DNA of 39,586 nt, taken from positions 1 through 39,586 of the forward strand of contig JACQSJ010000024.1 of assembly GCA_016205995.1 (NCBI GenBank), written 5' to 3'. The position numbers and the translations under genes were made by a program. Origin of the DNA: Candidatus Uhrbacteria bacterium (GTDB lineage Bacteria; Patescibacteriota; Patescibacteriia; UBA9934; GWF2-40-263). This document shows, piece by piece, positions 1,652 through 39,586 of the stretch (the first letter of the stretch is position 1; each line of letters begins with the position of its first letter). The notes under the pieces were generated by a model. The model ran no database searches. It was not told the origin of the DNA and saw nothing but the letters and a program-made list of their open reading frames with translations.

Positions 1652-1714
1652 ACGCCGAGTATGATGCCCTATTTGAGAAAAAAAGTGAATGTGTGGGAGT
1701 TTCAAAAATATAAG

Positions 1715-1765
1715 CCAGTCGGACATTAAATGTCCGACTGGTCGGATATTTAATGTCCGACCTGG
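1715..1765. repeat. Two adjacent palindromic hairpin repeats (REP-like or IS200 end-like)
   Basis: CCAGTCGGACATTAAATGTCCGACTGG at 1715-1741 is a perfect palindrome with 13-nt arms. A degenerate copy GGTCGGATATTTAATGTCCGACCTGG follows at 1740-1765. They sit between divergent serS and the HUH transposase gene. Confidence 0.85.
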
Positions 1766-1835
1766 TTGACGAAAGTGATATTTTCTGGTGTACTGTAGGT
1801 ATCCCCCTGCTAATTCATCATTGGTTAGGGGGTTT

Positions 1836-2516
1836 ATGTTTTCAGACAATTTTGTTCCAGGCGAGTACTACCACGTCTATAATCGTGGAGTTGATCGAAG
1901 GGTGACCTTCACGGGAAACCAGGACTTTCAAAGATTTTTTGATGGGATGCGAGTGTTTAACACAGCCCAAGATTCTGGGGAGTCGATATCTTTCTTCCGG
2001 CGCTGCCAACGCTCCTATCCAGTTGAACAGCAGCTTGCTCGCATATCGTCATTTTCTCTTATTCCAAACCATTTCCACATGTTGCTCCAAGAAGTATGCG
2101 AAGGCGGCATCTCACTCTTCATGCAGCGACAAGGAAATAGCTACACAAAATACTTCAATAGAAAGGAGCAACGAACCGGCTCTTTGTTTGAGAGCACCTA
2201 CCATGTTAAGCATATCGACTCACAAGCATATCTGGAGCACATAACTCGATACATCCACTTAAATATTCTCGACTTAGTCGGAATCGACTGGAAGGGACAG
2301 GGGGTAGACGATGACAAAAAAGCCCTGGAGTTTCTCAAACGATACCCCTGGTCGAGTTGCTATTACTATCTGAATGATATCGAAACACCGACACTCGATC
2401 TGTCTTTGCTGCGCGGACTTTTTTCTACTCCACAGACACACACCGACTTCATGTTCGACTACCAACCCACTCTACAACCCGACGACCTCATTTTTCCTAA
2501 GCCAGTCGGACATTAA
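1836..2516 (+). CDS. IS200-like / REP-associated tyrosine (Y1, HUH) transposase family protein
   Basis: N-terminal YHVYNRG, HUH motif in PNHFHMLLQ, and a catalytic-Tyr helix RYIHLN. AGGGGG lies 3 nt upstream of ATG 1836; the longer ORF start at 1788 has no such support. The stop codon TAA (2514-2516) sits in the loop of the downstream hairpin. Confidence 0.8.
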   Translation: MFSDNFVPGEYYHVYNRGVDRRVTFTGNQDFQRFFDGMRVFNTAQDSGESISFFRRCQRSYPVEQQLARISSFSLIPNHFHMLLQEVCEGGISLFMQRQGNSYTKYFNRKEQRTGSLFESTYHVKHIDSQAYLEHITRYIHLNILDLVGIDWKGQGVDDDKKALEFLKRYPWSSCYYYLNDIETPTLDLSLLRGLFSTPQTHTDFMFDYQPTLQPDDLIFPKPVGH

Positions 2517-2529
2517 ATGTCCGACTGGC
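2501..2529. repeat. Palindromic hairpin repeat, third copy
   Basis: GCCAGTCGGACATTAAATGTCCGACTGGC has the same core as 1715-1741, with 14-nt arms. It overlaps the transposase stop codon. Confidence 0.85.
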
Positions 2530-2577
2530 AAAGTAAAAGACGAGGAGTGGATCCTCGTCCGTAGTGAGTCGAGCGGG

Positions 2578-4281: not shown

Positions 4282-5246
4282 GGCGAGGCAGCCTCCCCCG
4301 ACGCTCCGGTCGGGGCTCCGACCCTAATGGCGTCGGAGCTGTGTGGGGTTGGGATGGCCTTGTGGGGACCGAACTTCACCGTGAAGCCGATCCCAAAGCC
4401 AGTACACACGAGTGCCGTGCCACCCGAGATGAGCGACACGGTTCCCAGCGCGTTGGCGCGAGATTGGAGTCCGGCGAGATCGCCGTCGGCCGTGTTTGGG
4501 TCTTGGTAGAGGTCCTTCTGGGACATGGCAACCCCATAGAGGACGCCACCGACCGCGGCCGCGATGCCTGAGGCAACGAACCAGGGACGCGGATCCCGAA
4601 GAACCCGCGGCCGCTGGAGCTCGTCCAGGTTGATCCCGAGGTCTTGCGCGGTCAGCCCGAAAGCGTTGCCGCTCCAGTTGGGAGTCGCTTCGCCCGGCTG
4701 GACGTAGCGGGTCTCCCGCAGGGTGTCGACCTCTTCGACGACCTGGTAGACCTGGATGATCACGGGGGTGAGCGAGTAGCGCGCGGAGTTCCGCACGCCA
4801 CCCACCAGGACGTACCCACCAGGAGGCGGATAGATCTTCTCGCCGTCACCGTCGGGCATCGTCTCGGCCGCCTTGTAGAGCGCAAGCAGAGGATGCCCCT
4901 CGCCTGCAACGTCCTCGGGAAACGCGTAGCCGGGCTGCAGCAGCAGACTCGCGTGGAGCTCCTGTTTGGCGCGGGTGTAGTTCCCTCCGATGAAGGCCTC
5001 CATGGCCATGAGGCGATGAAACGCGGCCGCGTCTTCCTTGGTCAGCGGCTCATCCACGCACGGCAGGATCTGCGTGCGCACGAGACTTGCCTGCGTGAGC
5101 AGGGCCTCGGCGTCGAGCGCCGCGAAGGCTTGCTCCGCGGTACGTCCGGCATCGCCCAGCTGTGCGACATGAGTCGATTCCTCGCACGCAGCATTCGCCA
5201 CCTGCGGGATCATCAGGCACAGCGCCATGAGCAGCAGCTTGAACAT
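4278..5246 (-). CDS. Hypothetical secreted / C-terminally membrane-anchored protein co-transcribed with the kinase
   Basis: ORF 4278..5315 trimmed to the ATG at 5246, which is preceded by GGAGGG. Signal peptide MFKLLLMALCLMIPQVANA. Two hydrophobic C-terminal helices. The 4-nt overlap with the kinase start implies translational coupling. I did not recognise the family. Confidence 0.7.
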   Translation of the reverse strand: MFKLLLMALCLMIPQVANAACEESTHVAQLGDAGRTAEQAFAALDAEALLTQASLVRTQILPCVDEPLTKEDAAAFHRLMAMEAFIGGNYTRAKQELHASLLLQPGYAFPEDVAGEGHPLLALYKAAETMPDGDGEKIYPPPGGYVLVGGVRNSARYSLTPVIIQVYQVVEEVDTLRETRYVQPGEATPNWSGNAFGLTAQDLGINLDELQRPRVLRDPRPWFVASGIAAAVGGVLYGVAMSQKDLYQDPNTADGDLAGLQSRANALGTVSLISGGTALVCTGFGIGFTVKFGPHKAIPTPHSSDAIRVGAPTGASGEAASP

Positions 5247-5388
5247 CGGGTATCCCTCCGGTGGGTTGATCTGATTGAGTGAGAAATTGGAAAGAACGAC
5301 GGCTTTTTTTAGCATTATTTACCGCCTGCGTCAATAGTAGCATGGTTCACAAAAGCTCAGATTCTGGCGCTCTATCCCCAACGACCCA

Positions 5389-5469
5389 TTGACGATGGAA
5401 GAAAAACCTGTTGTGATGGTTCTGTAAGAACCCCTTCATTGCCTGCTTGTCGGGCTGGGGGTTCTTTTT
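5389..5469 (+). promoter_or_regulatory. Promoter-like TTGACG-17-TGTGAT followed directly by a hairpin and T-run (module A)
   Basis: -35 at 5389-5394 and -10 at 5412-5417. Stem AAGAACCCC (5426-5434) pairs with GGGGTTCTT (5457-5465), then TTTTT to 5469. Paralogous to module B at 6152-6231. Confidence 0.45.
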
Positions 5470-5483
5470 GTTCGACCTAATCG

Positions 5484-5519
5484 GGAACATAAATTTTTCG
5501 ATCGTGAAAATTATGTTCC
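5484..5519. repeat. 36-bp imperfect palindrome, copy 1 (inverted relative to copies 2 and 3)
   Basis: GGAACATAAATTTTTCGATCGTGAAAATTATGTTCC. Its reverse complement matches copies 2 and 3 over the first 26 nt. It ends 6 nt before the ATG at 5526. Confidence 0.9.
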
Positions 5520-5525
5520 AGACAT

Positions 5526-6050
5526 ATGGCAATTAATAAAAGACCCCATACCGTAACCCAAGAAATCATCGATATGCTGGTTGAAGCCAGCGATCTTACT
5601 ATTGAGTGGATTAATAACCCGTACAAACAGTACAGACGGATTCGAGGAGTCATGGAGCCGGAGGAGTGGAATCGAATCTTTCGGGAAAAAAAGAAACGCC
5701 GGGTTTTGAAGGAACTCAAACGCAAGAAGTGGCTTACTGAGCGACGGGAAGGAAACCAAATCGTTTATGAATTGGAAGCATCAGTTGCCATCCGCCGCCT
5801 CAAGACAGCAATCAGATCAAAGGTTGCCTTCCTACCGGAACCATCGATTGTTTTGGTTGCGTTTGATTTTCCTGAAGCAGCAAGAAAGGCTCGGGACTCT
5901 TTTCGCTATTTTCTGAAGTCGGCTGGTTTCGCCAAAAAACAACTCAGTGTCTGGTTCACTAATAAGTCCGTTCTAGATGAAATACAGGCACTGGTCCGTA
6001 TGCTCAATCTTGAAAAATGGGTCAACGTTTTCCTAACTCACGGAACATAA
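5526..6050 (+). CDS. Winged-helix DNA-binding protein with a Cas2-like ferredoxin-fold module (truncated PaaX-like regulator)
   Basis: 174 aa. A basic wHTH-like segment (RVLKELKRKKWLTERREGNQIVYELE) is followed by a beta-alpha-beta pattern resembling Cas2/PaaX-central domains (IVLVAFDFPE / ARKARDSFRYFLKSAGF / KKQLSVWFT). AT-richer than its neighbours and no obvious SD. The fold assignment is pattern-based, not searched. Confidence 0.65.
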   Translation: MAINKRPHTVTQEIIDMLVEASDLTIEWINNPYKQYRRIRGVMEPEEWNRIFREKKKRRVLKELKRKKWLTERREGNQIVYELEASVAIRRLKTAIRSKVAFLPEPSIVLVAFDFPEAARKARDSFRYFLKSAGFAKKQLSVWFTNKSVLDEIQALVRMLNLEKWVNVFLTHGT

Positions 6051-6077
6051 TTTTCACGATCGAAAAAAGATTGTTCC
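6042..6077. repeat. 36-bp imperfect palindrome, copy 2
   Basis: GGAACATAATTTTCACGATCGAAAAAAGATTGTTCC. The 39-nt string at 6041-6079 is identical to 7410-7448. It contains the stop codon (6048-6050) of the preceding gene. Confidence 0.92.
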
Positions 6078-6079
6078 TT

Positions 6080-6100
6080 AACTATCCACAGCTCACCCAC
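6080..6100 (+). promoter_or_regulatory. Conserved 21-bp box AACTATCCACAGCTCACCCAC
   Basis: 20 of 21 nt identical to 7539-7559. It lies 51 nt upstream of a TTGACA -35. A degenerate relative, CTATCCCCAACGACCCA, is at 5372-5388. Confidence 0.6.
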
Positions 6101-6151
6101 GTTTATTATTAGAAAAGACGAGACTGACTGATTTTCGTGGAAAGGAATGTG

Positions 6152-6231
6152 TTGACAGGAGCGAAAAAAAATGATGTGATGGATGTAGAAGAACCCTCTC
6201 CTCTTCACCAGATCAACGGGTTCTTCTTTTT
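6152..6231 (+). promoter_or_regulatory. Promoter-like TTGACA-17-TGTGAT followed directly by a hairpin and T-run (module B)
   Basis: -35 at 6152-6157 and -10 at 6175-6180. Stem AGAAGAACCC (6187-6196) pairs with GGGTTCTTCT (6218-6227), then TTTT. It sits in the leader of the 6258 gene. Stem sequence is conserved with module A, but the loop is not. Confidence 0.45.
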
Positions 6232-6257
6232 GTTGATCTGACAGCCAGGAGGCTAGA

Positions 6258-6539
6258 ATGCGTTCCTTCATCGTCGCAATCGCAGTGCTGGCAGCAATCG
6301 CAGTGCTCATGTTCACTCGGAGTGAACCCAAGACAAGTGTCTTCGGGATGCCGCCCATGCCGTGCGAAGCGACCAGCGTCTCCGACGCACAGACATTGTG
6401 CCTGGACATCGACTTGGCCTCCACGCAGATTCCGCACAACGATCTGCATGCCATCATGCACCCGTGCCACAACTTCCCCGTCGATCTGGGAAATGACTAC
6501 ATGGTGGTCGTCTCCGCACCAAACGGGGCCGCTCCCTAG
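6258..6539 (+). CDS. Small secreted Cys-containing protein (hypothetical)
   Basis: 93 aa. SD AGGAGG lies 7 nt upstream. N-terminal hydrophobic signal/anchor MRSFIVAIAVLAAIAVLMF. Three Cys in the mature part. Followed by terminator 6545-6568. Confidence 0.65.
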   Translation: MRSFIVAIAVLAAIAVLMFTRSEPKTSVFGMPPMPCEATSVSDAQTLCLDIDLASTQIPHNDLHAIMHPCHNFPVDLGNDYMVVVSAPNGAAP

Positions 6540-6544
6540 CTCTC

Positions 6545-6568
6545 GCGCCGATACGCTCGGCGCTTTTT
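6545..6568 (+). terminator. Intrinsic terminator
   Basis: GCGCCGA-tacgc-TCGGCGC followed by TTTTT. Confidence 0.7.
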
Positions 6569-6576
6569 CTTTAAGC

Positions 6577-6598
6577 AAAAAGATGGCCGTGAGCCATC
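6577..6598 (-). terminator. Intrinsic terminator for the convergent HExxH gene
   Basis: On the minus strand: GATGGC-tcacg-GCCATC followed by TTTTT. Confidence 0.6.
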
Positions 6599-6605
6599 GT
6601 ATGGG

Positions 6606-7310
6606 CTACATGCCCAGCATGTGTTGCCAGTGCGCCGGGCAGGAATCGTGCCTACCGGCGGAGAGCGCGGCGAACAACGCACGGTCGAACGCCTTGGGAT
6701 CGGACGAACAGTACGGCAGTCGATCGTACCCGGTCATGCGGGCGAAGTCGCACTCCCGCTCGTACGCCTCACGCTCCAGGTTCCAGCCCGCCTCGCACTG
6801 GTCGGGCGAGTCGTTCGGATCCGTGATCACCGTAGAGGCGTATCGACCCGAGTCGATCTGTTCGAAGTGCACGGCTTCGTGAAGCAGGATGATGTCGAAA
6901 TACTTCCTTTCGAGTGGACGTCCGACACGCGCAGGCACGATGATCTGAGGACTCAGATACAGGGTACCCTTCAAGCCGACCGTGGTGTGTTCACGGTCGA
7001 AGACCGGTGCCGGTACGAATCGTCCGGAAGCCTCAGCGCGATCCAGCAGCCTAATGACCACCTCCTTGGACTCGACCTTCGACCAGAGAACATGCGAGAC
7101 TTCTGGCATCGGGTGGTTCTTGATCGCGTCGATGATGAACGATCCATCGAGATCAGGATCGAGGCGCAGGAGAACCGGTTCTTCGGCTGCCTGCTTCACC
7201 TGCGTGCTCGTCGCCGTAGCAGCCATCGCGGAGACCGGCTCCGTCTTGGACTCCCCGAGAAGCAAGAAGAGAAGGAGGACGGAAATGATGATGAGGAACA
7301 CCGAACGCAT
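6606..7310 (-). CDS. Secreted putative zinc metallopeptidase (HExxH protein)
   Basis: 234 aa. Signal peptide MRSVFLIIISVLLLFLLLG, HEAVH motif (ILLHEAVHFEQ) and four Cys. AGGAG SD and its own TTGACA-17-TAAATT promoter. Chosen over the antisense ORF 6621..7316, which lacks all of these. Confidence 0.7.
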   Translation of the reverse strand: MRSVFLIIISVLLLFLLLGESKTEPVSAMAATATSTQVKQAAEEPVLLRLDPDLDGSFIIDAIKNHPMPEVSHVLWSKVESKEVVIRLLDRAEASGRFVPAPVFDREHTTVGLKGTLYLSPQIIVPARVGRPLERKYFDIILLHEAVHFEQIDSGRYASTVITDPNDSPDQCEAGWNLEREAYERECDFARMTGYDRLPYCSSDPKAFDRALFAALSAGRHDSCPAHWQHMLGM

Positions 7311-7361
7311 GATTGACTCCTGATCGTTGCGTCGATGCGGAATTGCATGACGAAACGTGAC

Positions 7362-7390
7362 AATTTACAACATTTTATCCAATCTGTCAA
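7362..7390 (-). promoter_or_regulatory. Sigma70-like promoter of the HExxH gene
   Basis: Minus strand: TTGACA (7385-7390), a 17-nt spacer, then TAAATT (7362-7367). Palindrome copy 3 begins 20 nt upstream of the -35. Confidence 0.5.
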
Positions 7391-7410
7391 CGGCTCGTAT
7401 GGGACTCAAC

Positions 7411-7446
7411 GGAACATAATTTTCACGATCGAAAAAAGATTGTTCC
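7411..7446. repeat. 36-bp imperfect palindrome, copy 3
   Basis: Identical to copy 2. It lies in the divergent intergenic region between the HExxH gene and the lipoprotein gene. Confidence 0.92.
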
Positions 7447-7538
7447 TTGGAAACTTTTACTTTGATCATGTAGATCATGTTTAAGCCAGAAGATTCGAAA
7501 AGTGGGCGTTCGATCGAAAGGACAACGTTTCGGCCGGA

Positions 7539-7559
7539 AACTATCCACATCTCACCCAC
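7539..7559 (+). promoter_or_regulatory. Conserved 21-bp box AACTATCCACATCTCACCCAC
   Basis: Second copy of the 6080-6100 box, 49 nt upstream of the TTGACA at 7609. An ACTGATTTT word is shared in the spacer of both loci. Confidence 0.6.
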
Positions 7560-7608
7560 AGGATTTGTCAAAAATAACTGATTTTGACTGGCTTTAAAGG
7601 CAAAGGGG

Positions 7609-7637
7609 TTGACAAAATGCCAAAAATACGGTCAAAT
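7609..7637 (+). promoter_or_regulatory. Sigma70-like promoter of the lipoprotein gene
   Basis: TTGACA (7609-7614), a 17-nt spacer, then TCAAAT (7632-7637). The roughly 95-nt leader contains a GCGCC-GAAA-GGCGC hairpin. Confidence 0.45.
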
Positions 7638-7734
7638 GGAAGCAGAAAGTAGTTCCTTGCGCCGAAAGGCGCGTCCCCAAAAACCCAACCCGCTCCCGCA
7701 TCGAAATGCGGAACGGGGCACAAAGAGGTGAATC

Positions 7735-8379
7735 ATGACCCGCTTCCTGCTGGCCATCCTCCTCCTGCCCCTCGCCTTCGCGGCGGGGTGCGTGGAGCCC
7801 ACCTGCGACGGCGCCGAGTGCGTCGAAGACCCCGCCTGCACCGACTGCGGCGGGGACGACGACGACAGCGTCGACGTCTTCAACGGAGCGACCCTCCGCA
7901 ACATCGCGCCGTACGGGTGGATCGGGAGCACCAATCTCGCCCTCGTGGACGAGTTCCCGGACACCGTCTGCGAAGACGTCAACGTGTGCGACTACCCCGT
8001 CGAGGAGACGGGGAACTACTTCGTCGCCACCTTCGGGGAGACCTTCATCTGCGTCCCGCAGACGCAGCTCGTCACCGAGTCCGACGACGGCAACGTCGTC
8101 AGCGTCGACGACGCGTGGACGGGTGAGGGCGTCTGCGGCCTGGCTCCCAACGGGGAGTACAGTGGCTGGGATGTCGACACCGACATCGGCTCGCTCAATG
8201 GGTTCGACCAGGTGTGGATCACGGTCGACAACTACATGGCGGTCATCACGGGTTCCGATTTCTTCTACGAGGACGACGAGTACCTCCTGGAAGGATGGGT
8301 CTCCGATGACCTGAACGAGGTCTACTTCCACCGCGTCCTTGAGACCGGTGAGTACGAACAGACCATCTACCTGGAGTGA
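7735..8379 (+). CDS. Acidic Cys-rich lipoprotein (hypothetical)
   Basis: 214 aa. SD GAGGTG. Signal peptide with lipobox LAFAAGC. Eight further Cys and a D/E-rich composition like the giant protein. Preferred over the antisense ORF 7594..8391 because of the promoter, SD, lipobox and downstream terminator. Confidence 0.7.
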   Translation: MTRFLLAILLLPLAFAAGCVEPTCDGAECVEDPACTDCGGDDDDSVDVFNGATLRNIAPYGWIGSTNLALVDEFPDTVCEDVNVCDYPVEETGNYFVATFGETFICVPQTQLVTESDDGNVVSVDDAWTGEGVCGLAPNGEYSGWDVDTDIGSLNGFDQVWITVDNYMAVITGSDFFYEDDEYLLEGWVSDDLNEVYFHRVLETGEYEQTIYLE

Positions 8380-8445: not shown

Positions 8446-8480
8446 GCGACTCTCTCACACAGAGTCGCTATTTATTTTCT
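8446..8480 (+). terminator. Intrinsic terminator
   Basis: GCGACTCT-ctcacac-AGAGTCGC followed by TATTTATTTT. It is preceded by a second GC hairpin at 8412-8437. Confidence 0.6.
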
Positions 8481-8642: not shown

Positions 8643-11600
8643 TTACTCAGCCAGGATGTACACCGCTCCATCGTAATTGATCCATGGATTCACAATTCCA
8701 CCACCATTATCATCGCAGGAACTGCTCGAACTATTTTCGGAAGGACAATTCTCAATATCACACTCATCCTGGTCAGCACCCGTCTCATAATCAGTTACCC
8801 CTGTATAACACCCATCCGTCCCATCACTATCAGGTCCTGAATCACAGGTCCCCGTACACCATCCCCAGTTGTCCATCACGTGCACGCGGGGTTGGAAGAC
8901 ACAGGACTGGCCGTCGTAACAGGGCGAGTTGATCAGCCGGCCGTCTTCGTCAAATGTGCACTCCCGCTCCACGCCGGCGGCGATCAGTTGTTCCAGACGT
9001 CCCGTTGTGCAGACGTAATCATGCGTGAACGCCACATAGCTACTGCTGCAGGCCTGGGTGTACTGGCCAAACTCATCTGCATCATCGCTGCACTGCTGTG
9101 TATCCGAGGTCGGACTCAAGCCGCGGTAGTTCTTGTAGAAGTTATCTGGGGTAATGGATCCGCTTTGGCTCCCTGATGGCCAGGGGATATCTCCGGTGAT
9201 GGAGGCAAAGTCATCCCCCCAGTCGACGATGATGCGACGGATCGGCATCTGATCGGAGTCGGCATAGGTATAGAAACTGACGGTCACGCGCTTGGCGCCT
9301 TCCCCTTCCACCGTCCCGCTGTCCACCTCATTGACGGAAAACTTTCCCGTGCTCCCTTCGTAGCAGGACGTCCCCTCGCACTCCCCAACCGAGAGAACGA
9401 CGGGCACGTGATTCTCTGCATCCTCTCTGACTCCCCGCGTGTCCCAATCCCACTCACCGTATACGGTTGAGAAAGGGACATAGTTCTCTTCGTTGAAAAG
9501 CGTGAACTCTCCCGTAATTCCCTCTCCCTCAAACATCGAATCTAGGTCAGCCGTACGAATATTCGTATACCCATCACTAAACTGAACGATACCGTAAATA
9601 GCACCAAACAGCTGCGAGAGGCGAGAACGAGCGCTTGCTATAGAGCCAATACTTTGAACGATCCCACTTGCAGATTCAGGTTCACTTGCACGGCAAGCAT
9701 AGACCGGAGGCAGATCCAGACAATCCTGCATAGATGCATTTGATTCACCCGAACAATTTCTGGTGTTTGTGCAAAAATTTGGTTCACACACGGCATCATT
9801 TGGATCATCCGTTCCACATTGATAACCGTTGTTTGGTCCACCCTGACAAGATCCAGCACAATATCCACCACCCGGAGCGCATGCGTCAGGCGCGTCCTCT
9901 TCCGGAATAGTACAGTCCGTCCCGTCAAAATCTCCTCCTACACACTCAAAGTTGCCGCATTCAATTGGATTTCCTCCGTCCGAATTGCACATTGCATCAC
10001 TGGGATCTCCGCTATCGTCACAACTGCACGTTGATGGATCCTCGCAGTAATCCTCATAAACCAGCGGAATGTCCGATGATTGGGAGATGCTCACATACGC
10101 TCTGGCGTCGAAATAGGAAGAACTTTCTATCTCTTCGGTACTAGCTGGAAAATCATCCACATCACATGACCCATCCGCGAGAGGAAGTTGTATAACATCG
10201 ACGTTTTCGACGTCCCGACACATCAAAATTCTATGAGGACCCGGGTCTGCCTGTGCATCCAAATCCAACCAATCGAGCGCACGTCCATATGGAATAATCG
10301 GGGTTGAATAAGAATAGCCTAGATGCTCTGTGTCGCCACCTGTCAGAGCAGGAAATGAAATTTGGTCCTCATATAACCTGTCCGTCCAAGCGGCGTTATA
10401 TGTGTTAAAGGCTTCATCTGATTCCAAGATGTTACTGGCGACTTGAACCGTCGTCAGGCAGGCAAAATAGGACTCGTAGCGCATGTCTAACCCTCTGTAT
10501 CCTTTTGTGCGAGTGCCATTTAACGTCAGAATTTCATCCATACCATCCACATATTCGAACTCATCATTGGAGGCAAACTCATAATATTCCGGAACGTTTT
10601 CCACAACCCCCTGTACCCAACAGTCATCATAGAACTCGTAAGCGGTTGCAAAATCATCAGGCTCCATGACGTAAATACTGATATCCGGAGTGAGGTTACT
10701 TGAAGCAAAATAATCATCAATGTCTCCGGGTGTTCTCACATAACCACTGCTGGAAGAAAACGCGGTGGGCCAACGTTGGGTTGGGATCTCACATTCCGTT
10801 CCGGCTGGGAATGTTTCATCATCAGCCACTTTGTAGGACCTTTTTGGCACACAGAAATACGGACAATCATCGTCGCCCACAAGAGCTGAACATTGTCCGG
10901 AATCTACGGGCACTCCCCCAACCTCAGCTTGGTCGCCACACCCTGTCATGACGGCAAAATACCCTTCCGGACAAAATACCGCAGCAATACAATCATCTTC
11001 GGCTTGTGGATTGTTCAAGGCAGGATTAAGTGGCTCATCTGATCCAACCGCATCCGCTTCGTCTCTAAAGTTCGCCCAGGAACCATAATTGCATTGGTTG
11101 TCCTGCACCTCGGCGCAGGCAATCGAAGATGTTTGAATGTTATAGGCTGTTCCAACCTCCGCGCAGTAATACGTATTCTGAGGCGCGTACCCGGCAGACG
11201 TGTACTTCCCATACAGGTCGGTGGCACCCGTAAGTTGGTCCACAGGAAGCCACGTGAGACATGCCTGGTCTTCATTGGCTGTCGATCCCATGGTCTGGAT
11301 CGATGTGTCTCTTTCAATACAGTAACCCGACCAGCCGTAAATAGAATCGACACGGGTCAAGAACGTACAGATCCCCGATTGGTCCTCAGAAGAAGTGGCT
11401 AAGGTACAGTCATCGTTGTCAGTGCACGGAATCCCGGAAACAGGCCCACCCGAACAAATGCCATCCGGAACGTCGTCCGGATTTGAAGCCAAGCTAAAGT
11501 ACCGATATCCTGTCCCCTGTCCGTATTTCGCCTTGTCATAGCTGCAGGAACAGTCGACGACATTGCCTTGTAGATCCAAAGCACAAACATTGGAATCTTG

Positions 11601-14600
11601 GAACCCGTTCACGAACCCGTACGGCAGAGCCGCTTGGCTTGATGGAGAAAGTACACCGGGATCCGGTAAGATGGATACGGGAGGCTCGCCATCGGCCTCA
11701 ATATCAGCTCCACTATACTCAATCCACGTCTCCACGATATCGGGCGAGTACGGCGAGTCAATCTCTGGATACGCGCGGCACTCTTCATCACGTGCCACGT
11801 CCACCTGCAACGGATCCGCATATCCATCCCCGTTGCGGTCAACAATGTCGGAGAGGCAGCGGTTGTTGAAGCAGGTTCCCACGCTCGACGACTCAACGGG
11901 GACACACGTACGCGTTGTGCTGTTGGTCACGCACGGATCGCGCGCGTCCTCGTCTGTCGTCAATTCATCCACACACACAAACTGAGCGGGATCGCAGACC
12001 GGAGTTGGAACGCTGGGTAGGGAACTTGAGGTCGCCGTCGTACAATCCGGGTTGGTTTGATCATTTGGATCATTGTTGTCGGGATTGCAGGTGCAATCCT
12101 CATTTCCACAATTCAGAGATCCCGTTGCCTGATAGTACCCGACAATACAATCTTCCTCTTCCGTACAGTCACTGTTGTCCGCACATGCTGTGCCGGTTTC
12201 CGAGCAATGACCAACGGTGCAGGATCCCCCGTTGCCGTCTCCGGCCTCGGTCGAGTCGCATGGCCCCGCGTTGTAGACCAGGCGGTAGTCTTGCTGAGTC
12301 GACGCCTCGCAATTGTAGAAACAGGTACCTGAGGCGGTATCGCATTGGGTGTACCCAGCACTCACACAGGCGGCATCAGAGGTACACGCCTGCCCGGTGT
12401 CAGAGGAACAATCCGTGTGCGTCGAGCAGACAATGGGGAAACCAAGGTCGTTGAGGACCGGCACGGCCTCAGGATTTTCAGGGGTGCCATCAGGATCATT
12501 ACAATAAGCCTCCGTCTCGACGTTGAACTGGTCGTAGAGCTCAACTGGCAACTGGTTGGGGATGGCGTTGCCCGAGTACTCATAACCGCTCCAGCTCACG
12601 TCGCGCAGGGAATACTGGTACGCCGAGAGAATCGTGGGGTCGGACTCGTCCCACGCCGAGCAGATGGCTCGATCACCCTGCTGTTGGCCGTCCACGCACA
12701 AATTGATCGAATCACAAATGGTGTCGTACTTGTTGGTGCTGGTGTTCCAACTGGTGCGCGAGCTCTCACAGGCCAGCCAGGACGCACAGGATCGGTCGCG
12801 ATTCACCTTGATGACCTCGTTGCTGTCGTCTTCTAGAGAAAAAATCGAAGAGACATTTGAACATGTTCCTGAAACCTCTTCCCCGTTGTATGTTGGAAGA
12901 GTGGCACAATCAGAATCAACAAAACAGGAGGCATCATAGACGGGGTTGGAGAAGGAGGAAGCAACTCCAGTATCCGAACTGGATGTGGTGAGCGAGTCGC
13001 CGATTTGGAGTTGGTATAAGCAACGTCGGGCGCACAAATCCACCGTCGTGCCGGTCCCGGCCACGGCCGCGTTCGCACTGGAGATCGTAAACTCGCCTCC
13101 GCCTTCCGTCGTACAGCTCACCGGATCCACTAAGGCATCCTCCTCTTTTCCGTAGAATACGTCGGCGTGTCTGGAGAGGATGTAGCTTGCACTCGCGTTG
13201 TAGGTAAGTTCTGAAACAGTCGTGTTGTTAAAAACCGCGCATCCAAACTTCTGGCTCACCTGGCCGTTACAGCGCTGGCTGTCCGTGAGCGTCTCCTCGT
13301 TCAAAAGCTCATCGTTGGTAAAGTAGTAGGACTGACCTTCCTCATTGAGGCCGCCGCCGGTATCCACGACGTCGATAAACTCGGTACACAGATCATACTT
13401 ACGCTCGCAGGCAGCGACCCAGCCGTCGTAGTAGTCCCACGCATCACCATCTCCATCGTCTTCGTCTCCATTGTTCCACACGCCAAACTCCTCGCCCGCG
13501 ATCAAGTACGCTTCGTCCTGGTCACGGTCATAACTGCCATCATTGTCGATGTCCTCCCAATAACACGGCTCGTTCGTGCCGGATCGGAACCACCCAAAGT
13601 ACGAGCGGTTCTCCATGGTCACGCTCGTCTTGTATTCACACTCCTTGTCCAGCGGATCCTTAAAGTAGAAATTCCCGTCCTGTGTTGATTCCCACTCCTC
13701 GCAGAACAGCGCTTCGTTGTCGCACAGGAGCGTGCCGTAATCCGCAGGGAGGTTTATGTAGTAGACCGACTCGAAACTTTCGACCTCGCTTTGATCCTGG
13801 GTATACGTCGGCGAACCAAACTCCTGACATCCCATGGCGCTTGAGGTGCACGCATACCGGTCGTCTTCAACGATGTACACCGGCGTGTCCCCGGAAATCA
13901 CGACCGTCTCTGGGCCGTACACGACGGCATAGCGCTCGGTCGCACTCACTGTTTCTACTGGTAGGACGCCGCCAAACGCCTGGTTGGCGTCAAAGACACA
14001 GTAGCCCTGACCGGCGATGATGGTGCAGTACTCCACCCCGTCGATTTCGCAGGCCACGTTGCTTGTCCGCACGTCGCCGTCGGTGAAGTCCAAGTCATTG
14101 GAGTACACGCAGCGGGCGTTGTACACCTGCGTGTAGGGCGATTCCGAATTGGCCGTCTGGTAGAACCCCTCACAACCCACCACCTCTTCTGAACACAGGT
14201 CAGAGAATTGGTAGAGGTCGACGTCGTTGCCGTTGTGGTCGGTGTAGGCCTCGCAGCCAAGATAGAACTGGGGCGAGTCCACCGCCTGCGGCGTCTGGTC
14301 GCAGGTACTGGGCACCACCCAGGAATCCTTGATGATGGTGATGTTCTCCTCGACCTGTTTGAGGGTCACGTTGTCCAGGTAGAATTCCGCGTCCGCACCC
14401 GTGGCAAAGCGCAGGACCGCGTTCTCGTCGAAGTCATCGTAGGCAGAGGTGTCGATGGGACCCAACGAGTAGAGCTGCCAGGCTCCCGAGAGTGTGAGGT
14501 CGTCGGGGATAAGTGGATCATTTTGCGGGTCAACGAAATTACGTGAGGATCCGGCTCCGCCTTCTTCCTCGAACGTTACCGCAAGACTGCCAGACCCCTT

Positions 14601-17600
14601 GGCCCAAAACTCCAGCACAAACGTCTTGCCAGCGACCAAGTCGTCCGTGAGCGCACCGCAACTTCCTTCCCCGTCCAAAACCGTACAGTCCTCGTCCTCT
14701 GAACCATCGCCGTCGATGTCATTGGTCACATCACATCCGCCAGTCCCTACCACTCCGGTACAGCTGGTTGGGTCGTCTTCATCGTAGGTGTCTATATTCG
14801 AAGGACCCAAATACACCTGAACGGTATCTATTCCTGCCGTGCCACCGGAGGGAGCCAAGACGTACAGCGAGTGTCCTTCTGTGGCGACCGACTCATTGCT
14901 GATGGCGATCTCATCGGGGAACGAGCTCAAGTCGGCCATGGCAAAGTCCTCATAGGTGCCACCCTCAAAGGTTTCCGAGAGAATCGTCGTCGCGTTGCGA
15001 CCCGCCCCTCCCGTGTAGGCGCGACACCCGTTTTGCTCAGCCGGACATTCCACACTCTCTTCTGGTAGGACGTAGTAGCGACAGAATCCTTGATCGGTCC
15101 AGTAGCCGCCGCTTCCTTCCTGAACTCCAAATGTCGCTATAGGACAATCGGAAGACACATTCCCTTGGCAATCGCAAGCGGTGCTTTCATCCTTTCGGTA
15201 CGCCGCGCACTCGTCAGATATCGAAATCGTGTCCGAGTACTGGCGGTAGTGGATGTTGCCTTCTGTGTCGAAAAACTCACGGCAGTCGGGGTTTCCAAAA
15301 ATGTCGTCGTGCTCATCGCACGCCTCGTTCGCCCAGACGTCATCTTGCATGGCCGAGTTGCTATCGCCACAGACCACCTCGTTCTCGGAATTCATCTGAA
15401 TGTGGGTGCAGGGGGCAAGCTCCGGATCCGTCTCTTCAAACGGAGTACATCCGAGTGGCGGTTCGAGTGACGGTGTGCAGCTATCAAACGTATCCGTCGC
15501 CCCGCCGTAATTGGACTGGAGCAGTGACCAGGTCTGGAGTTGGTACCCCTCGTTGTCCGATCCCTCCCACGTGAAGTACGTCGCTGGCGTCTTGTTCGTG
15601 GCGGTCGCGTCGGCGATGTCGGGGCTCAAACAGAACCGGAGGTCGGTGTAATACTCAATCCCCTCCCCGCCCGCTTCCACGCTCCCGAGGTTTGTATACG
15701 AGTCACATCCGACAAATTGCTCCGAGCAGGTACTGGCGCTGTCGGCGATAAAGTAGAGCGGGAACGATTGGCTTTCAAAATCCGTGGCTTCCTGCTTGTA
15801 AGTCGCATACCCCACGCACTCGCTTGGACACGCGTCAAGCTCAGAGATGATGGCTGGCACGCTTGGATCCCCGTCTTCTGGGGCGTACAAGCTACAGCCG
15901 ACTTCCTGCGCAGAGCACACTTGTGCGTAGGAATCACAGGCCTCTGGATCTGTGGGCTTCCCGGTGCATCCCAAATAGCTGGGCGCGATTTGGTAATAGA
16001 CCTCCGAGGGCGAACCACTATAGCCTTCGGCAAAGATATTCGCGTCCTCACCCAGCTCAAGCTGAAGTGCATCCACAAACAGGTTGCCCGTTGCGTAGGT
16101 CGGCGTATTGGCGACCTCAACCAAAATCTGAACGGTATTCTCTGGCGTGGTCATGAGGCACTCGAAACGGTCAAAGTCATCGGTGCTAGGCGCCTCGATG
16201 ATCTCGTACCAGTCATTGACCGCGTCCCATGTGCAATCGCCCGAGAACGACGTCCCGGCCGCGTCCAAGGGGACTCCGTCCGCATCCAAGAATGAAATTT
16301 GGACAAGCACCTCATCCCCGGAGGTCTGTGCCTGAAAGTAGCCACTGAACGTATAAAAATTATGCTCCGCCGCCTGTACGATCTGAGAGACATAATTGGA
16401 GTTGCCTGGAGTCAGGCGCAAGGACGTTGAACCAAATGCTGAAGTCGATGTGTCAAGGAATATGGAACTGGAATCTATCGGTGTCCAGCCATCGGGAGTC
16501 CCATCGCTGTCTTCGTCCTCTTCAAACGACGGATTTTGGACGGTGTTGAGGTACACGCCCTGCTCAAATGGGTAGAGCTGGGTGCAGCCGACATCGCCTT
16601 CGCTGCACGACGTCGCGTTGTTGGTGAGATATAAACGATCCTCGTAGGCGTATTGCTCGTAGGTGTAGGTTTCGCCAGACGTATAGATGTAGGCGCCACG
16701 CCCGGCCGTCTCCCATGCGGTGCCATTCCACGTGGGCGCGTTCACATCCGCATCGCGCTCTGCCAAGACGTAATCGTCCCCGGTGGCAAGCCACTCGTAG
16801 GTATCGTCAGCAGGATCTTCGGTCCCCGCGTCTTCCAGGTACTTGCCGGTGCGGTACCAGCGGCAACCGGCATTGTCCTGGTCGCAAACGCTGTAATTGA
16901 CTGTGCTCACCAAGAAATCTCCCGTATCCCCCGTTTCCGTATTTGTGAAAGAAAGGCAGGTGGCATACTCCTGTGGGCACTCATTGCCACGGAACCGCCA
17001 CACATTTTTCTCTTGCACGCAGTAGCCATACCCGTCCACGCAGTTCCCGTCGTTGTCTTCCCCGATACAGCTGGGGGCATCAACGCAGGAGGTGTTGCGC
17101 CCGGGAGAAAGCGTAGAAATGCGAATCTCCCCGTTTCCCACGGCGCGACACTCAGTCTGGGGATACTTCAACACCCAGTTGGGGTCGATCAGGTGGCACC
17201 ACTTGTTGTTGGAATCCGCAGCGCCCGCAGGGCCGATCGTGCCGTTCTCTGTGCAATCGTTAAAGCCGTCGATCACCTCCTGGAGCGTGGCGGGATTCGA
17301 CTCGCTGTTGCGCTGCGCCGCCAGTTCCCACCCAATGGGGAGCACGCGCGCCTTGCGCAGCTTCACAAGGTTCCCGTAGCAGTAGCCATATGTATGGCAG
17401 AACGGATCTTGGTTGGCTGCTTCGTTGTCCGGCGGGATGAGCGGCCAGTTGGCGTTTAAGAGACCTTCATCGATCGCCTCTTGCACGGTGAGGGGAACGC
17501 CGGCGGTTCCACGATTCACCGCTGCTAAGAAGTTTACGTCCATCACGCAGTTATTGAGCCCACGGTTGATCGTCCCTTCCGCGGTACACACGACGAACTC

Positions 17601-37757: not shown

Positions 37758-39586
37758 ACAGGTCTGCTTTTTTTCGTGCCTCTTCAAGATTCTGTCGCAT
37801 GGTTGCGACGACGTGCTCGGGGGCCTTGGACGTGAACTCCGCGTTGGCGAGCTTTGCTTCAAGCGTCTTGATGTAGTCTTGTGTCTCTTGCTGTTCGTGT
37901 GCTCGGCTTGCCCGCTCGGCTTCTTTGTCCACGAGCCCTTCGAGGGAAACAAACACCTGCCCGTCGACCACGACCGCCGATGCATACTCCCCCACGGGCG
38001 GCCGCGCTTCAAACGTGAGCTCGCCCACACCCGCGAGCGCCGCGATCACCGATGTGTGCTCCTTGAGCTTCCCACCCACGATCACCGCACGGATCTTTTG
38101 CTTGGGTGCGACGGTGAATTGAGAACGGATATTGCGAATGGCAACAATCAGGTTCTGCACTTGAGAGAACTCACGTTCGGCCGAGACATCGAAGTGATCC
38201 CCTGTCGCCATCGGCCACTCGTGGACGATCAACATGGTCTCCGGATCGATCTGCTTCCAAAGTTCCTCTGTCACAAACGGCATGAATGGATGCCAGTAGG
38301 TAAGAAGTCGCTCGAGGATGTATAGGAGAATCTTGTCCGTTGTCTCTCCTTTTTGAATCTTTGCGATCTCCAGATACCAATCGGCAAACTCGCTCCATGT
38401 GAAGTCGCGTAACTTCTCTCCCGCCTGAGAAAACTCATAACTCTCAAGATGATCCGTGACCTCTTTCTGAAGTGTATAAAATCGGGAGAGGATCCATCGA
38501 TCTGCAAGTGATTGTGGCGAGAGCTCAGATTCAGCGACATGACGCACCCCATCCACCTGCATGAACACGAAGCGAGAAATATTCCAGAGCTTGTTGGTAA
38601 AGTTTCGATAGCCGGCAACTTTAGCCTCGGAAAGTTTCGAGTCGTTGCCAGGTGTGGAGCCAATCGTAAGTGAGAGCCGCGTAGCGTCCGCGCCGTAGGC
38701 ACTAATCATGTCGAGTGGATCAATAATATTATCCAGCGACTTACTCATCTTGCGCCCCTGCTCATCCCGCACGAGTCCATGGAGGTACACTTTCTTAAAC
38801 GGGACTTGCCCGAGGGTATATGTCGTCATGAGAATCATACGAGCCACCCAAAAGAACAGGATATCGTAACCTGTTTCCAAAACGGTTGTTGGATGGAACG
38901 TCTTGAGGTCGGCCGTTTGGTCGGGCCAGCCCAGCGTTGAGAACGTCCAAAGCCCAGAGGAAAACCACGTGTCGAGGGTGTCGGGATCTTGTTCCCATCC
39001 ATTGCCTTGCGGTGGCTCGACTGCTACATAGGTCGCCTGGGTCTCATCGGACCTATACCAAACCGGCACGCGATGGCCGAACCAAATTTGCCGACTGATA
39101 TTCCAGTCACGAAGGTTATCGATCCAATGGAAGTAGGTCTTATCGAACCGCTCAGGGATGATGCGTATTTGTCCCGATCGGACCACATGTGACATGAGCT
39201 CTTTAAGTGTTACGGACTGCCCGTCCACGATCCCCTCGATAGGCGCGTGTTCACTTGCTCGAAATGCGAACGGCTTGTTCACATCGATGAACCACTGAAG
39301 TTTTGGAAGCGGTTCAACGGTTGTGCCACAGCGATAACAGACGGAAAGATTGTGCACGTAATCCTCATCAATGTGGTCGACGAGTCCCTTCTTTGCGAGT
39401 TGAGAGACGATCTCTTCCCGTGCCTCGTGAGCATTCCTTCCCGCAAACGACCCGGCGGCCTGTGTCAGATTTCCATCCTCGCCAATAATCTTCACGATCT
39501 CAAATCCGTATTTCTTCGCGAGCTCAAAGTCGACAAAACTATGTGCGGGGGTGATCGTCATGGCACCGGACCCCATCTCCCTATCA
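37735..39586 (-). CDS. valS: Valyl-tRNA synthetase, 5'-truncated by the window edge
   Basis: The frame is open to nt 39586. GSGAMTITPAHSFVDFE (compare GTGAVKITPAHD), KMSKS motif (RKMSKSLDN) and a C-terminal coiled coil. Overlaps argS by 23 nt. Confidence 0.92.
   Translation of the reverse strand, partial: DREMGSGAMTITPAHSFVDFELAKKYGFEIVKIIGEDGNLTQAAGSFAGRNAHEAREEIVSQLAKKGLVDHIDEDYVHNLSVCYRCGTTVEPLPKLQWFIDVNKPFAFRASEHAPIEGIVDGQSVTLKELMSHVVRSGQIRIIPERFDKTYFHWIDNLRDWNISRQIWFGHRVPVWYRSDETQATYVAVEPPQGNGWEQDPDTLDTWFSSGLWTFSTLGWPDQTADLKTFHPTTVLETGYDILFFWVARMILMTTYTLGQVPFKKVYLHGLVRDEQGRKMSKSLDNIIDPLDMISAYGADATRLSLTIGSTPGNDSKLSEAKVAGYRNFTNKLWNISRFVFMQVDGVRHVAESELSPQSLADRWILSRFYTLQKEVTDHLESYEFSQAGEKLRDFTWSEFADWYLEIAKIQKGETTDKILLYILERLLTYWHPFMPFVTEELWKQIDPETMLIVHEWPMATGDHFDVSAEREFSQVQNLIVAIRNIRSQFTVAPKQKIRAVIVGGKLKEHTSVIAALAGVGELTFEARPPVGEYASAVVVDGQVFVSLEGLVDKEAERASRAHEQQETQDYIKTLEAKLANAEFTSKAPEHVVATMRQNLEEARKKADLYVHDSKS

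Follow-up and report, generated by a model that had tools for sequence, protein, structure and literature searches.

A PaaX/Cas2-like regulator gene of Candidatus Uhrbacteria bracketed by palindromes that may be its own DNA sites

Two described systems come close to the locus analyzed here. PaaX, the repressor of phenylacetate catabolism in E. coli (structure 8a39), has an N-terminal winged helix followed by a Cas2-like central domain and, in a chain of ∼316 amino acids (aa), the phenylacetyl-CoA effector domain PaaX_C. Its operator is TGATTC(N27)GAATCA, and PaaX represses its own promoter (PMC9493321). Stand-alone Cas2 is a protein of ∼90–110 aa found beside cas1 and an array of clustered regularly interspaced short palindromic repeats (CRISPR). 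In this study we examine a 174-aa protein that joins a winged helix to a Cas2-like domain and is encoded by an uncultured groundwater bacterium, Candidatus Uhrbacteria, of the Candidate Phyla Radiation (CPR), on a contig of a metagenome-assembled genome, complete at 39,586 nucleotides (nt), that we call the window. Its gene is bracketed by two palindromes, P1 and P2, and a third copy, P3, lies beyond it. We propose, with moderate confidence and on the strength of sequence comparison, that these 36-bp palindromes are the cognate DNA sites of the protein encoded between them, so that gene and sites form a self-bracketed autoregulatory unit. The unit is most likely an undescribed self-regulating switch and not a random repeat. 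Its elements in the window, with P3, are:

5484–5519, no strand: palindrome P1, GGAACATAAATTTTTCGATCGTGAAAATTATGTTCC, ending 6 nt 5' of the ATG (5526); proposed autoregulatory operator
5526–6050, plus strand: gene of the 174-aa winged-helix and Cas2-like protein ('mini-PaaX'), assigned from Pfam, TIGR01573, AlphaFold2 (AF2), Foldseek and a profile search against the PDB
6042–6077, no strand: palindrome P2, containing the TAA stop codon (6048–6050) of the 174-aa gene; same as P3 across 6040–6079
7411–7446, no strand: palindrome P3, in the spacer between divergent promoters, 20 nt upstream of the −35 of the promoter of a gene for a secreted HExxH protein

The string CGGAACATAATTTTCACGATCGAAAAAAGATTGTTCCTT is found exactly twice in the window, at 6041–6079 and 7410–7448 (0 expected, 100 shuffles). 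P1, counted as the third copy, is 89% complementary to P2 and P3: its reverse complement agrees with them over the first 26 nt (GGAACATAATTTTCACGATCGAAAAA) and diverges beyond. A sequence-only reading of the region had described this 39-nt string with its two positions, the inverted third copy and the 26-nt match; all of these are in the sequence, and the identity between P2 and P3 reaches a full 40 nt (6040–6079 = 7409–7448). As that reading also noted, all three copies are palindromes of the form GGAACA-N24-TGTTCC centred on CGATCG, and their placement is as it described (P1 before the ATG, P2 spanning the stop codon, P3 upstream of the HExxH −35). Watson-Crick symmetry amounts to 15/18 in P1 and 13/18 in each of P2 and P3. 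The half-sites lie 30 bp apart centre to centre, about three helical turns, with the CGATCG centre ∼1.4 turns from either half-site. All three copies fall within 2 kb, at spacings of 558 and 1,369 bp that enclose genes and not spacers, and no further copy of the 36-mer occurs in the 39.6-kb window. The alternation of AT-rich and GC-rich segments that had been noted is also present: GC content is 46% at 5201–6400 and 7201–7600, against 58–63% in the cassette genes between P2 and P3 described below.

The 174-aa protein bears the NCBI product name "CRISPR-associated endonuclease Cas2". It matches the Pfam family PaaX_M (PF20803, "PaaX central Cas2-like domain") with E 4.5e-13 and 49.5 bits, against a gathering score of 24, which bears out the earlier call of a PaaX/Cas2-like protein. 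With the Cas2 equivalog TIGR01573 it scores 27.4 bits, just over the cut-off of 24.5, and with the PaaX equivalog TIGR02277 21 bits against a cut-off of 264.55, which leaves it outside that equivalog. The Pfam scan gave no match to PaaX_C in the protein; the chain ends at residue 174. The AF2 model, based on a 53-sequence alignment (predicted local distance difference test, pLDDT, 84.7), consists of an N-terminal helical region, a winged helix (helices 45–51 and 55–66, wing strands 70–83), a linker helix and, at 107–172, a beta-alpha-beta-beta-alpha-beta domain. Foldseek matched this model first to E. coli PaaX (8a39) and next to type II-A Cas2 (26–32% identity), and the C-terminal 70 aa show the Cas2 ferredoxin-like fold, with a template modelling score (TM-score), normalised to the target, of 0.5–0.6 against type II-A Cas2. 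A profile of the family, run against the PDB, matched PaaX (8a39) over both the winged helix and the Cas2-like domain (E 7.6e-6) and aligned the winged helix to PaaX residues 54–92; the winged helices of ArsR, MarR, PadR and AspA match the same region. By profile and model the 174-aa protein is a relative of PaaX across both domains, and the Cas2-like domain probably dimerises.

The Cas2 signature residues of this domain are kept across the family. Among 53 diverse members (15–30% identity) F113, D114, R123, Q139 and S141 are invariant, and P116, E117 and R127 are kept in at least 90%. The stretch FDFPE...R...QLSVW of the 174-aa protein aligns with Cas2 FDMPT...R...QFSIY, with D114 aligned to the Asp of FDMP in type II-A Cas2, whereas in the profile alignment PaaX has lost these FD-PE / R / Q-SV motifs. 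The family therefore lies between Cas2 and PaaX, having kept the Cas2 catalytic-type motif where PaaX lost it. The family is large, with 5,438 clusters (50% identity, E ≤ 1e-10), nearly all of 165–210 aa; named members come from Uhr-, Doudna-, Niyogi-, Berkel- and Parcubacteria, and databases label them inconsistently as "Cas2", "PaaX" or "hypothetical".

The comparison with PaaX extends to the DNA. The operator geometry is the same, with 6-bp inverted half-sites about three turns apart (TGATTC-N27-GAATCA against GGAACA-N24-TGTTCC), geometry alone being compared here. Thus the arrangement resembles the PaaX operator, although the sequence-only reading had found no described system to match it. 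The differences are also clear: the protein of the window is much the shorter and has no effector domain; its site, unlike the PaaX operator, is conserved at the CGATCG centre and forms a palindrome along most of its length; and no paa genes are present among the annotated open reading frames (ORFs) of the window. To our knowledge, sites at both ends of the gene have not been described for PaaX. The literature search returned no paper linking Cas2 with PaaX, or PaaX with the CPR. What appears to be new is a PaaX-type regulator/operator pair whose sites bracket the gene, an architecture that runs through the family and was previously undescribed.

The likeness to type II-A Cas2 lies in the shared ferredoxin-like fold, the TIGR01573 score above cut-off and the aligned motif, and the 36-bp partly palindromic repeat has the typical size of a CRISPR repeat. 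The 174-aa protein, however, is a winged-helix fusion, and the scanned ORFs of the window include neither cas1 nor any other cas gene; no CRISPR array was found in the window, and the neighbourhoods of the relatives contain no cas genes. By these comparisons the protein has a genuine Cas2-like domain but is not a CRISPR Cas2.

We compared the locus with genomic loci retrieved for relatives of the 174-aa gene (L001, L002 and so on), whose proteins are from 82% down to about 20% identical to that of the window. Counted as lineages were the window, L001, L002, L003, L018, L019, L030, L011 (two paralogs), L004/L013, L015, L017, L021/L022, L023, L027, L028 and L029, from Uhr-, Doudna-, Berkel- and Parcubacteria. 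In 17/17 of these lineages a lineage-specific palindrome of 36–42 bp flanks the gene on each side. The 5' palindrome ends 0–26 nt before the ATG and is seen in 16/17, the upstream end of L023 not having been recovered; the 3' palindrome, seen in 17/17, overlaps the stop codon or lies at most about 45 nt past it. By this comparison the conserved unit is P1, gene and P2, and not a four-gene island. Its setting varies among the CPR lineages, whose units stand in unrelated genomic contexts. In L015 and L017 it lies inside same-strand runs of housekeeping genes, and four distant members have their 3' palindrome in the space where two convergent genes end. Within Uhrbacteria the position by a 345-aa gene, a kinase gene and serS is kept over 56% to 100% protein identity.

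The sequences of the palindromes change from genome to genome in a concerted way. The two sites within one genome are alike, and sites of different genomes differ: CGATCGAAA is present in all three sites of the window, CGATCGTGA in both P2 and P3 of the L001 genome, and examples of arms from different lineages are GGAACAT, GACCTAA, C(A/T)A(A/G)CGTA, TATACGT, CGAACAAT, ATCTCGCTT, ATATACA and TTACYAA. Whereas the arms diverge, the centre, (N)CGATCG(N), hardly varies, and the two-fold symmetry is kept. Over 31 distinct sites, 81% of cells are paired, compared with 59% in shuffles and 32–43% with slid partners, and 118 double-change cells are seen where 43 are expected; the observed values are reached by 0/500 shuffles. 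When the half-site variants of Uhrbacteria were set against recognition-helix and wing residues, all half-sites fitted G-N-A-C-N-T-A-A. A pattern scan of one genome per species (185,579 species) found eight loci in all: four are genuine and belong to CPR genomes with 1–2 sites each, and the other four, about the number expected by chance, lie in coding DNA of unrelated phyla. A metagenome scan contributed six further loci.

In two lineages a promoter can be read beside P1. In L004, P1 begins 7 nt past the −10 of a TTGACA-16-TAAAAT promoter; P1 of L027 contains the promoter, whose TATAAT precedes the ATG by 7 nt, so that a leaderless mRNA is suggested for this regulator. Both are classical repressor positions. 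A canonical sigma-70 promoter for the regulator gene was found only in these two, and none was found in the Uhrbacteria group.

Several single loci carry variants of the unit. L011 has a full second paralog on the minus strand (1897–2436, within 1870–2500) with quite different palindromes (centre CCACCTGG / CCAGCTGG), and at 13258–13374 a truncated remnant of a second regulator gene (the last ∼27 codons, ∼80 nt) directly before a fourth palindrome of the GGAACA type. In L005, of Doudnabacteria, a solitary near-perfect palindrome of the GGAACATAA...CGATCG...TTATGTTCC type lies at 6478–6513, ∼155 nt upstream of hisS, with no regulator gene within the 8 kb examined; it could be a target in trans or a solo site. 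The right arm of the 3' palindrome of L018 contains a 113-nt insertion (1288–1400) resembling a miniature inverted-repeat transposable element (MITE), with ∼24-nt terminal inverted repeats and a duplication of 8 bp (ATTGTTCC). Two independent short-read contigs end inside the 3' palindrome (L002 at 6393–6414, L030 at 1919–1936), which agrees with more than one copy of this palindrome in those genomes, as in the window.

The explanation that we favour takes the protein to be a trimmed PaaX-type regulator, a winged helix-turn-helix joined to a Cas2-like domain without the ligand-binding C-terminal domain. A dimer would place the centre of the site, around CGATCG, across its Cas2-like core, and its two winged helices would read the outer GGAACA(T) half-sites. 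P1 would separate the start codon from any transcription arriving from upstream; in some relatives it lies on the promoter itself or where transcription starts. Its occupancy would shut the gene off, giving negative autoregulation. P2 might cooperate with P1, for example through a ∼560-bp loop, or insulate the gene from outside transcription; because P2 lies between convergent gene ends in the four distant members, its conserved role would concern the regulator gene itself and not a downstream promoter. In Uhrbacteria, extra copies may have been recruited beside promoters of accessory genes, with P2 abutting module 2 and the 93-aa gene, both described below, and P3 at about −56 to −91 of the HExxH promoter, and the outcome would be a small, evolutionarily unstable local regulon. 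We infer binding, the sign of regulation and looping from these comparisons. A precedent for sites around a regulator gene is phage lambda, in which cI lies between OL and OR and the flanking operator sets cooperate by looping. With cognate sites flanking the gene that encodes the regulator, at distances of a few hundred to a few thousand bp, both loci would fit cooperative autoregulation; the lambda repressor, however, has an unrelated fold and tripartite operators, against one long site per side in the window, where there is no phage context and where we infer the looping.

Several points weigh against a plain repressor and its operators. No canonical promoter was found for the regulator of the window, the candidate TTGACG-17-TGTGAT lacking the −11 A, and a terminator-like hairpin stands between this candidate and P1. 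The Cas2 catalytic-type residues that are invariant in the family and lost in PaaX would not be needed by a simple repressor. On straight DNA, CGATCG would face away from the half-sites, given its ∼1.4 turns from each. In the distant members P2, between convergent gene ends, would have no promoter to act on, and the housekeeping runs that hold the unit in L015 and L017 would be an odd location for a regulator's operators. Binding itself is predicted by comparing sequences.

Some of these points could fit an active Cas2-like domain that nicks or cuts CGATCG, the palindromes being sites of DNA processing or recombination at which gene-sized segments are exchanged, excised, inverted or integrated, in a cassette array like those of attC, lox or CRISPR repeats that counts the regulator gene among its cassettes. 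We hold this unlikely. It would account for the Cas2-type motifs, invariant or nearly so in 53 members and lost in a bona fide repressor, and a 15-6-15 layout around an invariant centre is reminiscent of recombinase core sites. P1 and P2 are mostly direct repeats, which insertion with target duplication would produce; the 1,330-nt segment between P2 and P3, which are identical over 40 nt, is missing precisely from L003 and L018; in L011 the same layout of identical copies surrounds a different gene pair; and three alternative neighbours follow P2 in different genomes, with the regulator remnant before the fourth site of L011. However, the layout from P2 to P3 is old, being shared with the more distant L001/L024 genome at 82–86% identity, and homologous deletion suffices for L003 and L018. 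The cassette genes have their own promoters and terminators. Cassettes of attC arrays are mostly promoterless, each closes with an imperfect palindrome, and strains differ in cassette content; in the loci compared here content varies at palindrome boundaries. No Cas1, integrase or other recombinase is encoded nearby among the scanned ORFs of the window, and an integron integrase (tyrosine recombinase) is likewise missing from the window and the flanks of the relatives; the locus does not appear to be an integron. Usually there is one unit per genome with no sign of proliferation, and we know of no Cas2-family protein that catalyses strand transfer. We also regard as improbable the broader proposal that these proteins, more than repressors, are site-specific DNA-processing enzymes found throughout the CPR, with Cas2 as their ancestor or descendant. 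Each would recognise a private 36–42-bp palindrome with its winged helices and act on CGATCG through the Cas2 residues, and palindrome-bounded segments, the protein's own gene and the HExxH/small-protein pairs among them, would be exchanged as cassettes of a repeat-cassette-repeat array. The Cas2-like domain could act on RNA instead, with the palindromes forming hairpins in the 5' leader and at the 3' end of the regulator transcript that a Cas2- or VapD-like activity binds or cleaves, so that the regulator would control itself post-transcriptionally or its message would be cut out of polycistronic transcripts; endoribonuclease activity is reported for VapD and some Cas2 proteins, and the protein has a weak VapD match (E 0.003). 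P1 folds well (−10.9 kcal/mol as a DNA hairpin, z −5.1), near-perfect palindromes of relatives fold better still (L027 −18.6, L018 −14.0), and P1 abuts or includes the start codon of a gene that has no Shine-Dalgarno sequence in any lineage (5505–5528 in the window), although its neighbours have strong ones (AGGAGG, GAGG). In L015 and L017, moreover, the same-strand runs mean that both sites would be transcribed. On the other hand, the folds of P2 and P3 do not surpass those of shuffled sequence (z −1.1), what is kept there being the half-sites and the centre; mismatches on the sense strand (19 G-T against 27 A-C) show no G-T (G-U) bias; and the winged helix at the N-terminus is of the DNA type and homologous to the one in PaaX. 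No predicted regulator transcript includes P3 or the solitary site of L005, and P3 is probably untranscribed and acts as DNA, because the two divergent promoters both point away from it and the convergent genes have their terminators short of it. An Rfam scan of 5200–7800 at permissive thresholds found nothing relevant, with a single chance snoRNA match (E 0.42). Action at the RNA level seems to us unlikely as well, and the position of P3, the poor folding of P2 and P3 and the lack of G-U bias lead us to favour palindromes that act as DNA.

The unit might also be mobile, a selfish element moving into intergenic regions like a transposase gene of the RAYT type (REP-associated tyrosine transposase, REP being repetitive extragenic palindrome) flanked by REPs or like the hairpin ends of IS200/IS605. 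Here too a small gene is bracketed by palindromic repeats in an AT-rich islet, with 46% GC in surroundings of 58–66%; the genomic contexts across CPR lineages are unrelated, the L005 palindrome could be an empty or solo site, and a genuine RAYT-like unit of the same layout, an insertion relative to L001, is present in the window (1709–2535). In contrast to such elements, the 174-aa protein has neither an HUH/Tyr nor a DDE motif, the repeat is not dispersed, and the position in Uhrbacteria by the 345-aa gene, kinase gene and serS has been held throughout the identity range given above. No genome has identical units in multiple copies, and the paralogs of one genome carry different palindromes, pointing to old divergence and not to recent transposition; we therefore consider a selfish origin quite improbable. 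Hardly credible is a 36-mer that is a generic genome-wide REP, bacterial interspersed mosaic element (BIME) or MITE unrelated to the protein. It is palindromic and intergenic, and the genome does carry REP-like and MITE elements, but those families number tens to hundreds of copies per genome, whereas the 36-mer has three in the window, all inside the island, and 1–2 sites in whole representative genomes of relatives. Every lineage compared has gene and site together, with covarying sequence. The dispersal at unrelated sites that the sequence-only reading had named as one outcome speaking against its proposal was thus not seen in the genome scan.

The RAYT-like unit at 1709–2535 is a second AT-rich islet. 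It contains a gene for an IS200-like or REP-associated Y1 transposase (1836–2516; Pfam Y1_Tnp, 33 bits) between identical 31-nt palindromic strings at 1711–1741 and 2498–2528, with a second palindrome in tandem at 1741–1761 and the stop codon in the loop of the 3' copy. L001 and L009 lack the whole unit at the corresponding junction of serS and the kinase gene, which identifies it as an insertion.

Hardly any regulators have been characterised in CPR bacteria, whose genomes are tiny, and here a very large family is paired with its probable DNA sites from sequence alone. Operator/regulator pairs of private specificity could be used as orthogonal parts in synthetic biology. The annotation of the family is corrected, its members not being CRISPR adaptation proteins, and an old question, the role of Cas2-like domains outside CRISPR, is made testable. 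If the palindromes were also recombination sites, they would define a new kind of cassette system, and if the protein processed DNA, the arrangement would correspond, at the scale of genes, to a CRISPR or attC array and might connect Cas2, PaaX and repeat-flanked DNA insertion in evolution. The generality of the pairing of gene and palindrome, together with the retained Cas2 motifs, makes the system more than a single local curiosity, even though the claim of a regulon is weaker than had been proposed.

Around the palindromes, a module of ∼100 nt is present three times in the window (5372–5471, 6080–6233 and 7541–7637) and nowhere else in it. The copies share a box, CTATCC(A/C)CA...CCCA, and TTGAC(G/A) followed after a 17-nt spacer by TGTGAT or TCAAAT; in two of the three a hairpin with a T-run comes directly after the module. 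The features are:

5372–5425, plus strand: conserved upstream module 1, with the CTATCCCCAACGACCC box, −35-like TTGACG (5389–5394), 17-nt spacer and TGTGAT (5412–5417)
5426–5471, plus strand: terminator-like hairpin and T-run, between module 1 and P1
6080–6233, plus strand: module 2, with CTATCCACAGCTCACCCAC (6082–6100), TTGACA (6152–6157), 17-nt spacer, TGTGAT (6175–6180), hairpin (6187–6227) and T-run
7454–7537, no strand: 84-nt segment between P3 and module 3, delimited by blastn breakpoints; absent in L024, present in L003 and L018
7541–7637, plus strand: module 3, with CTATCCACATCTCACCCAC (7541–7559), TTGACA (7609–7614), 17-nt spacer and TCAAAT (7632–7637), upstream of the lipoprotein gene

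Across six relatives, the alignment of 5360–5530 has a mean column identity of 81%, and TTGACG and TGTTGTGAT are invariant. The RNA fold of 5422–5535 reaches −34.7 kcal/mol (z −3.2), and the inner stem of the 5426–5471 hairpin shows a compensatory change in L002 (GCCTG/CGGGC to GCAT/ATGC). The TGTGAT of module 1 is not a canonical −10, because it has no A at position 2. From such features the module may be a promoter, a small RNA gene or an insulator/terminator. Module 2 is homologous to L009 1–54 and L011 13439–13505. The 84-nt segment, flanked by a GGAAAC repeat, is a small insertion or indel. The DnaA-box-like CTATCCACA had raised the possibility of a replication origin: matches to the DnaA box (TTATCCACA, at most one mismatch) number 15 in the window against 5.6 expected, and no shuffle reached 15. 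The idea was dropped, since the 9-mers are scattered (e.g. 6082–6090 and 7541–7549) and the GC-skew profile is unlike that of an origin.

The accessory genes that follow the unit in the window are:

6258–6539, plus strand: 93-aa small secreted or membrane protein containing Cys; strong Shine-Dalgarno sequence, own terminator at 6545–6563
6606–7310, minus strand: 234-aa secreted HExxH protein (putative metallopeptidase); own terminator at 6598–6582, promoter at 7390–7362
7735–8379, plus strand: 214-aa lipoprotein with lipobox LAFAAGC; terminator at 8446–8468

The 93-aa and HExxH genes are convergent, each with its own terminator, and the HExxH promoter (minus strand) is near-consensus, TTGACA-17-TAAATT. 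A homolog of the 93-aa protein occurs in L025 (49% identity), orthologs of the lipoprotein in L003 and L024 (48%), and orthologs (68–82%) and paralogs of the HExxH protein in L019, L011, L002 and L003. For the HExxH protein Pfam gave weak sub-threshold M56 and SprT-like signals, NCBIfam and PADLOC no match, and Foldseek nothing below E = 2 with an AF2 model of pLDDT 60 from a 4-sequence alignment.

What is kept in all Uhrbacteria relatives is the block of module 1, P1, gene and P2 (5372–6079), and what follows P2 differs: module 2 and a small secreted ORF in the window and in L001/L009, as also past the fourth site of L011; a plus-strand HExxH gene in L019 and L011; and module 3 with the lipoprotein gene in L003 and L018. 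These last two, the closest relatives with context, lack exactly the segment 6080–7409 with the 93-aa ORF and the HExxH gene, and the breakpoints lie in the shared palindrome. Deletion between the 40-nt direct repeats is the most economical account of L003 and L018, because the same layout exists in the more distant L001/L024 genome, where L024 has an orthologous P3 at the same position; recent insertion of the cassette, also considered, is weakened by that layout and is the less parsimonious. Recent inversion of the HExxH cassette between the window and L019 or L011 was rejected, the oppositely oriented genes being 27–42% identical and hence paralogs. Convergent pairs of an HExxH gene (227–241 aa) and a small secreted ORF (75–109 aa) lie at most 2 kb from the regulator gene in the window, L001/L024, L002, L003 and L011 (two pairs), and an HExxH-type gene is near the regulator in L019 and L030 as well, on short contigs whose partner ORF was not part of the comparison. 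The recurrence of the pairs supports a functional link with the regulator gene, but the island's composition is fluid and confined to this clade.

These results divide the mini-regulon that the sequence-only reading had proposed. The specific pairing of palindrome and protein stood, conserved in every lineage; the four-gene neighbourhood held in part, through the recurring HExxH/small-ORF pairs, and failed as the conserved unit, its composition varying. Control of the lipoprotein gene is the weakest link: P3 ends 162 nt before the −35-like hexamer of that gene.

The contig L009 (CAZELN010000039.1) is labelled 'uncultured Gammaproteobacteria' and is syntenic with the Uhrbacteria locus L001; its regulator copy is 77% identical in protein sequence to that of the window, and the contig is probably misbinned. 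The contigs L012 and L011, 99.2–99.96% identical, differ by a 464-nt insertion (L012 3164–3627 against L011 12314–12323) that contains an ORF for a 145-aa secreted protein and has a ∼10-nt duplication at its junction. Downstream of the lipoprotein gene, the minus strand of the window carries a 3,372-aa ORF (8643–18761) with an N-terminal signal-like segment and many Cys; in the Pfam scan no domain was above threshold (CBM_4_9 at E 0.007 only), and orthologs of this ORF adjoin the lipoprotein gene in L003 and L024.

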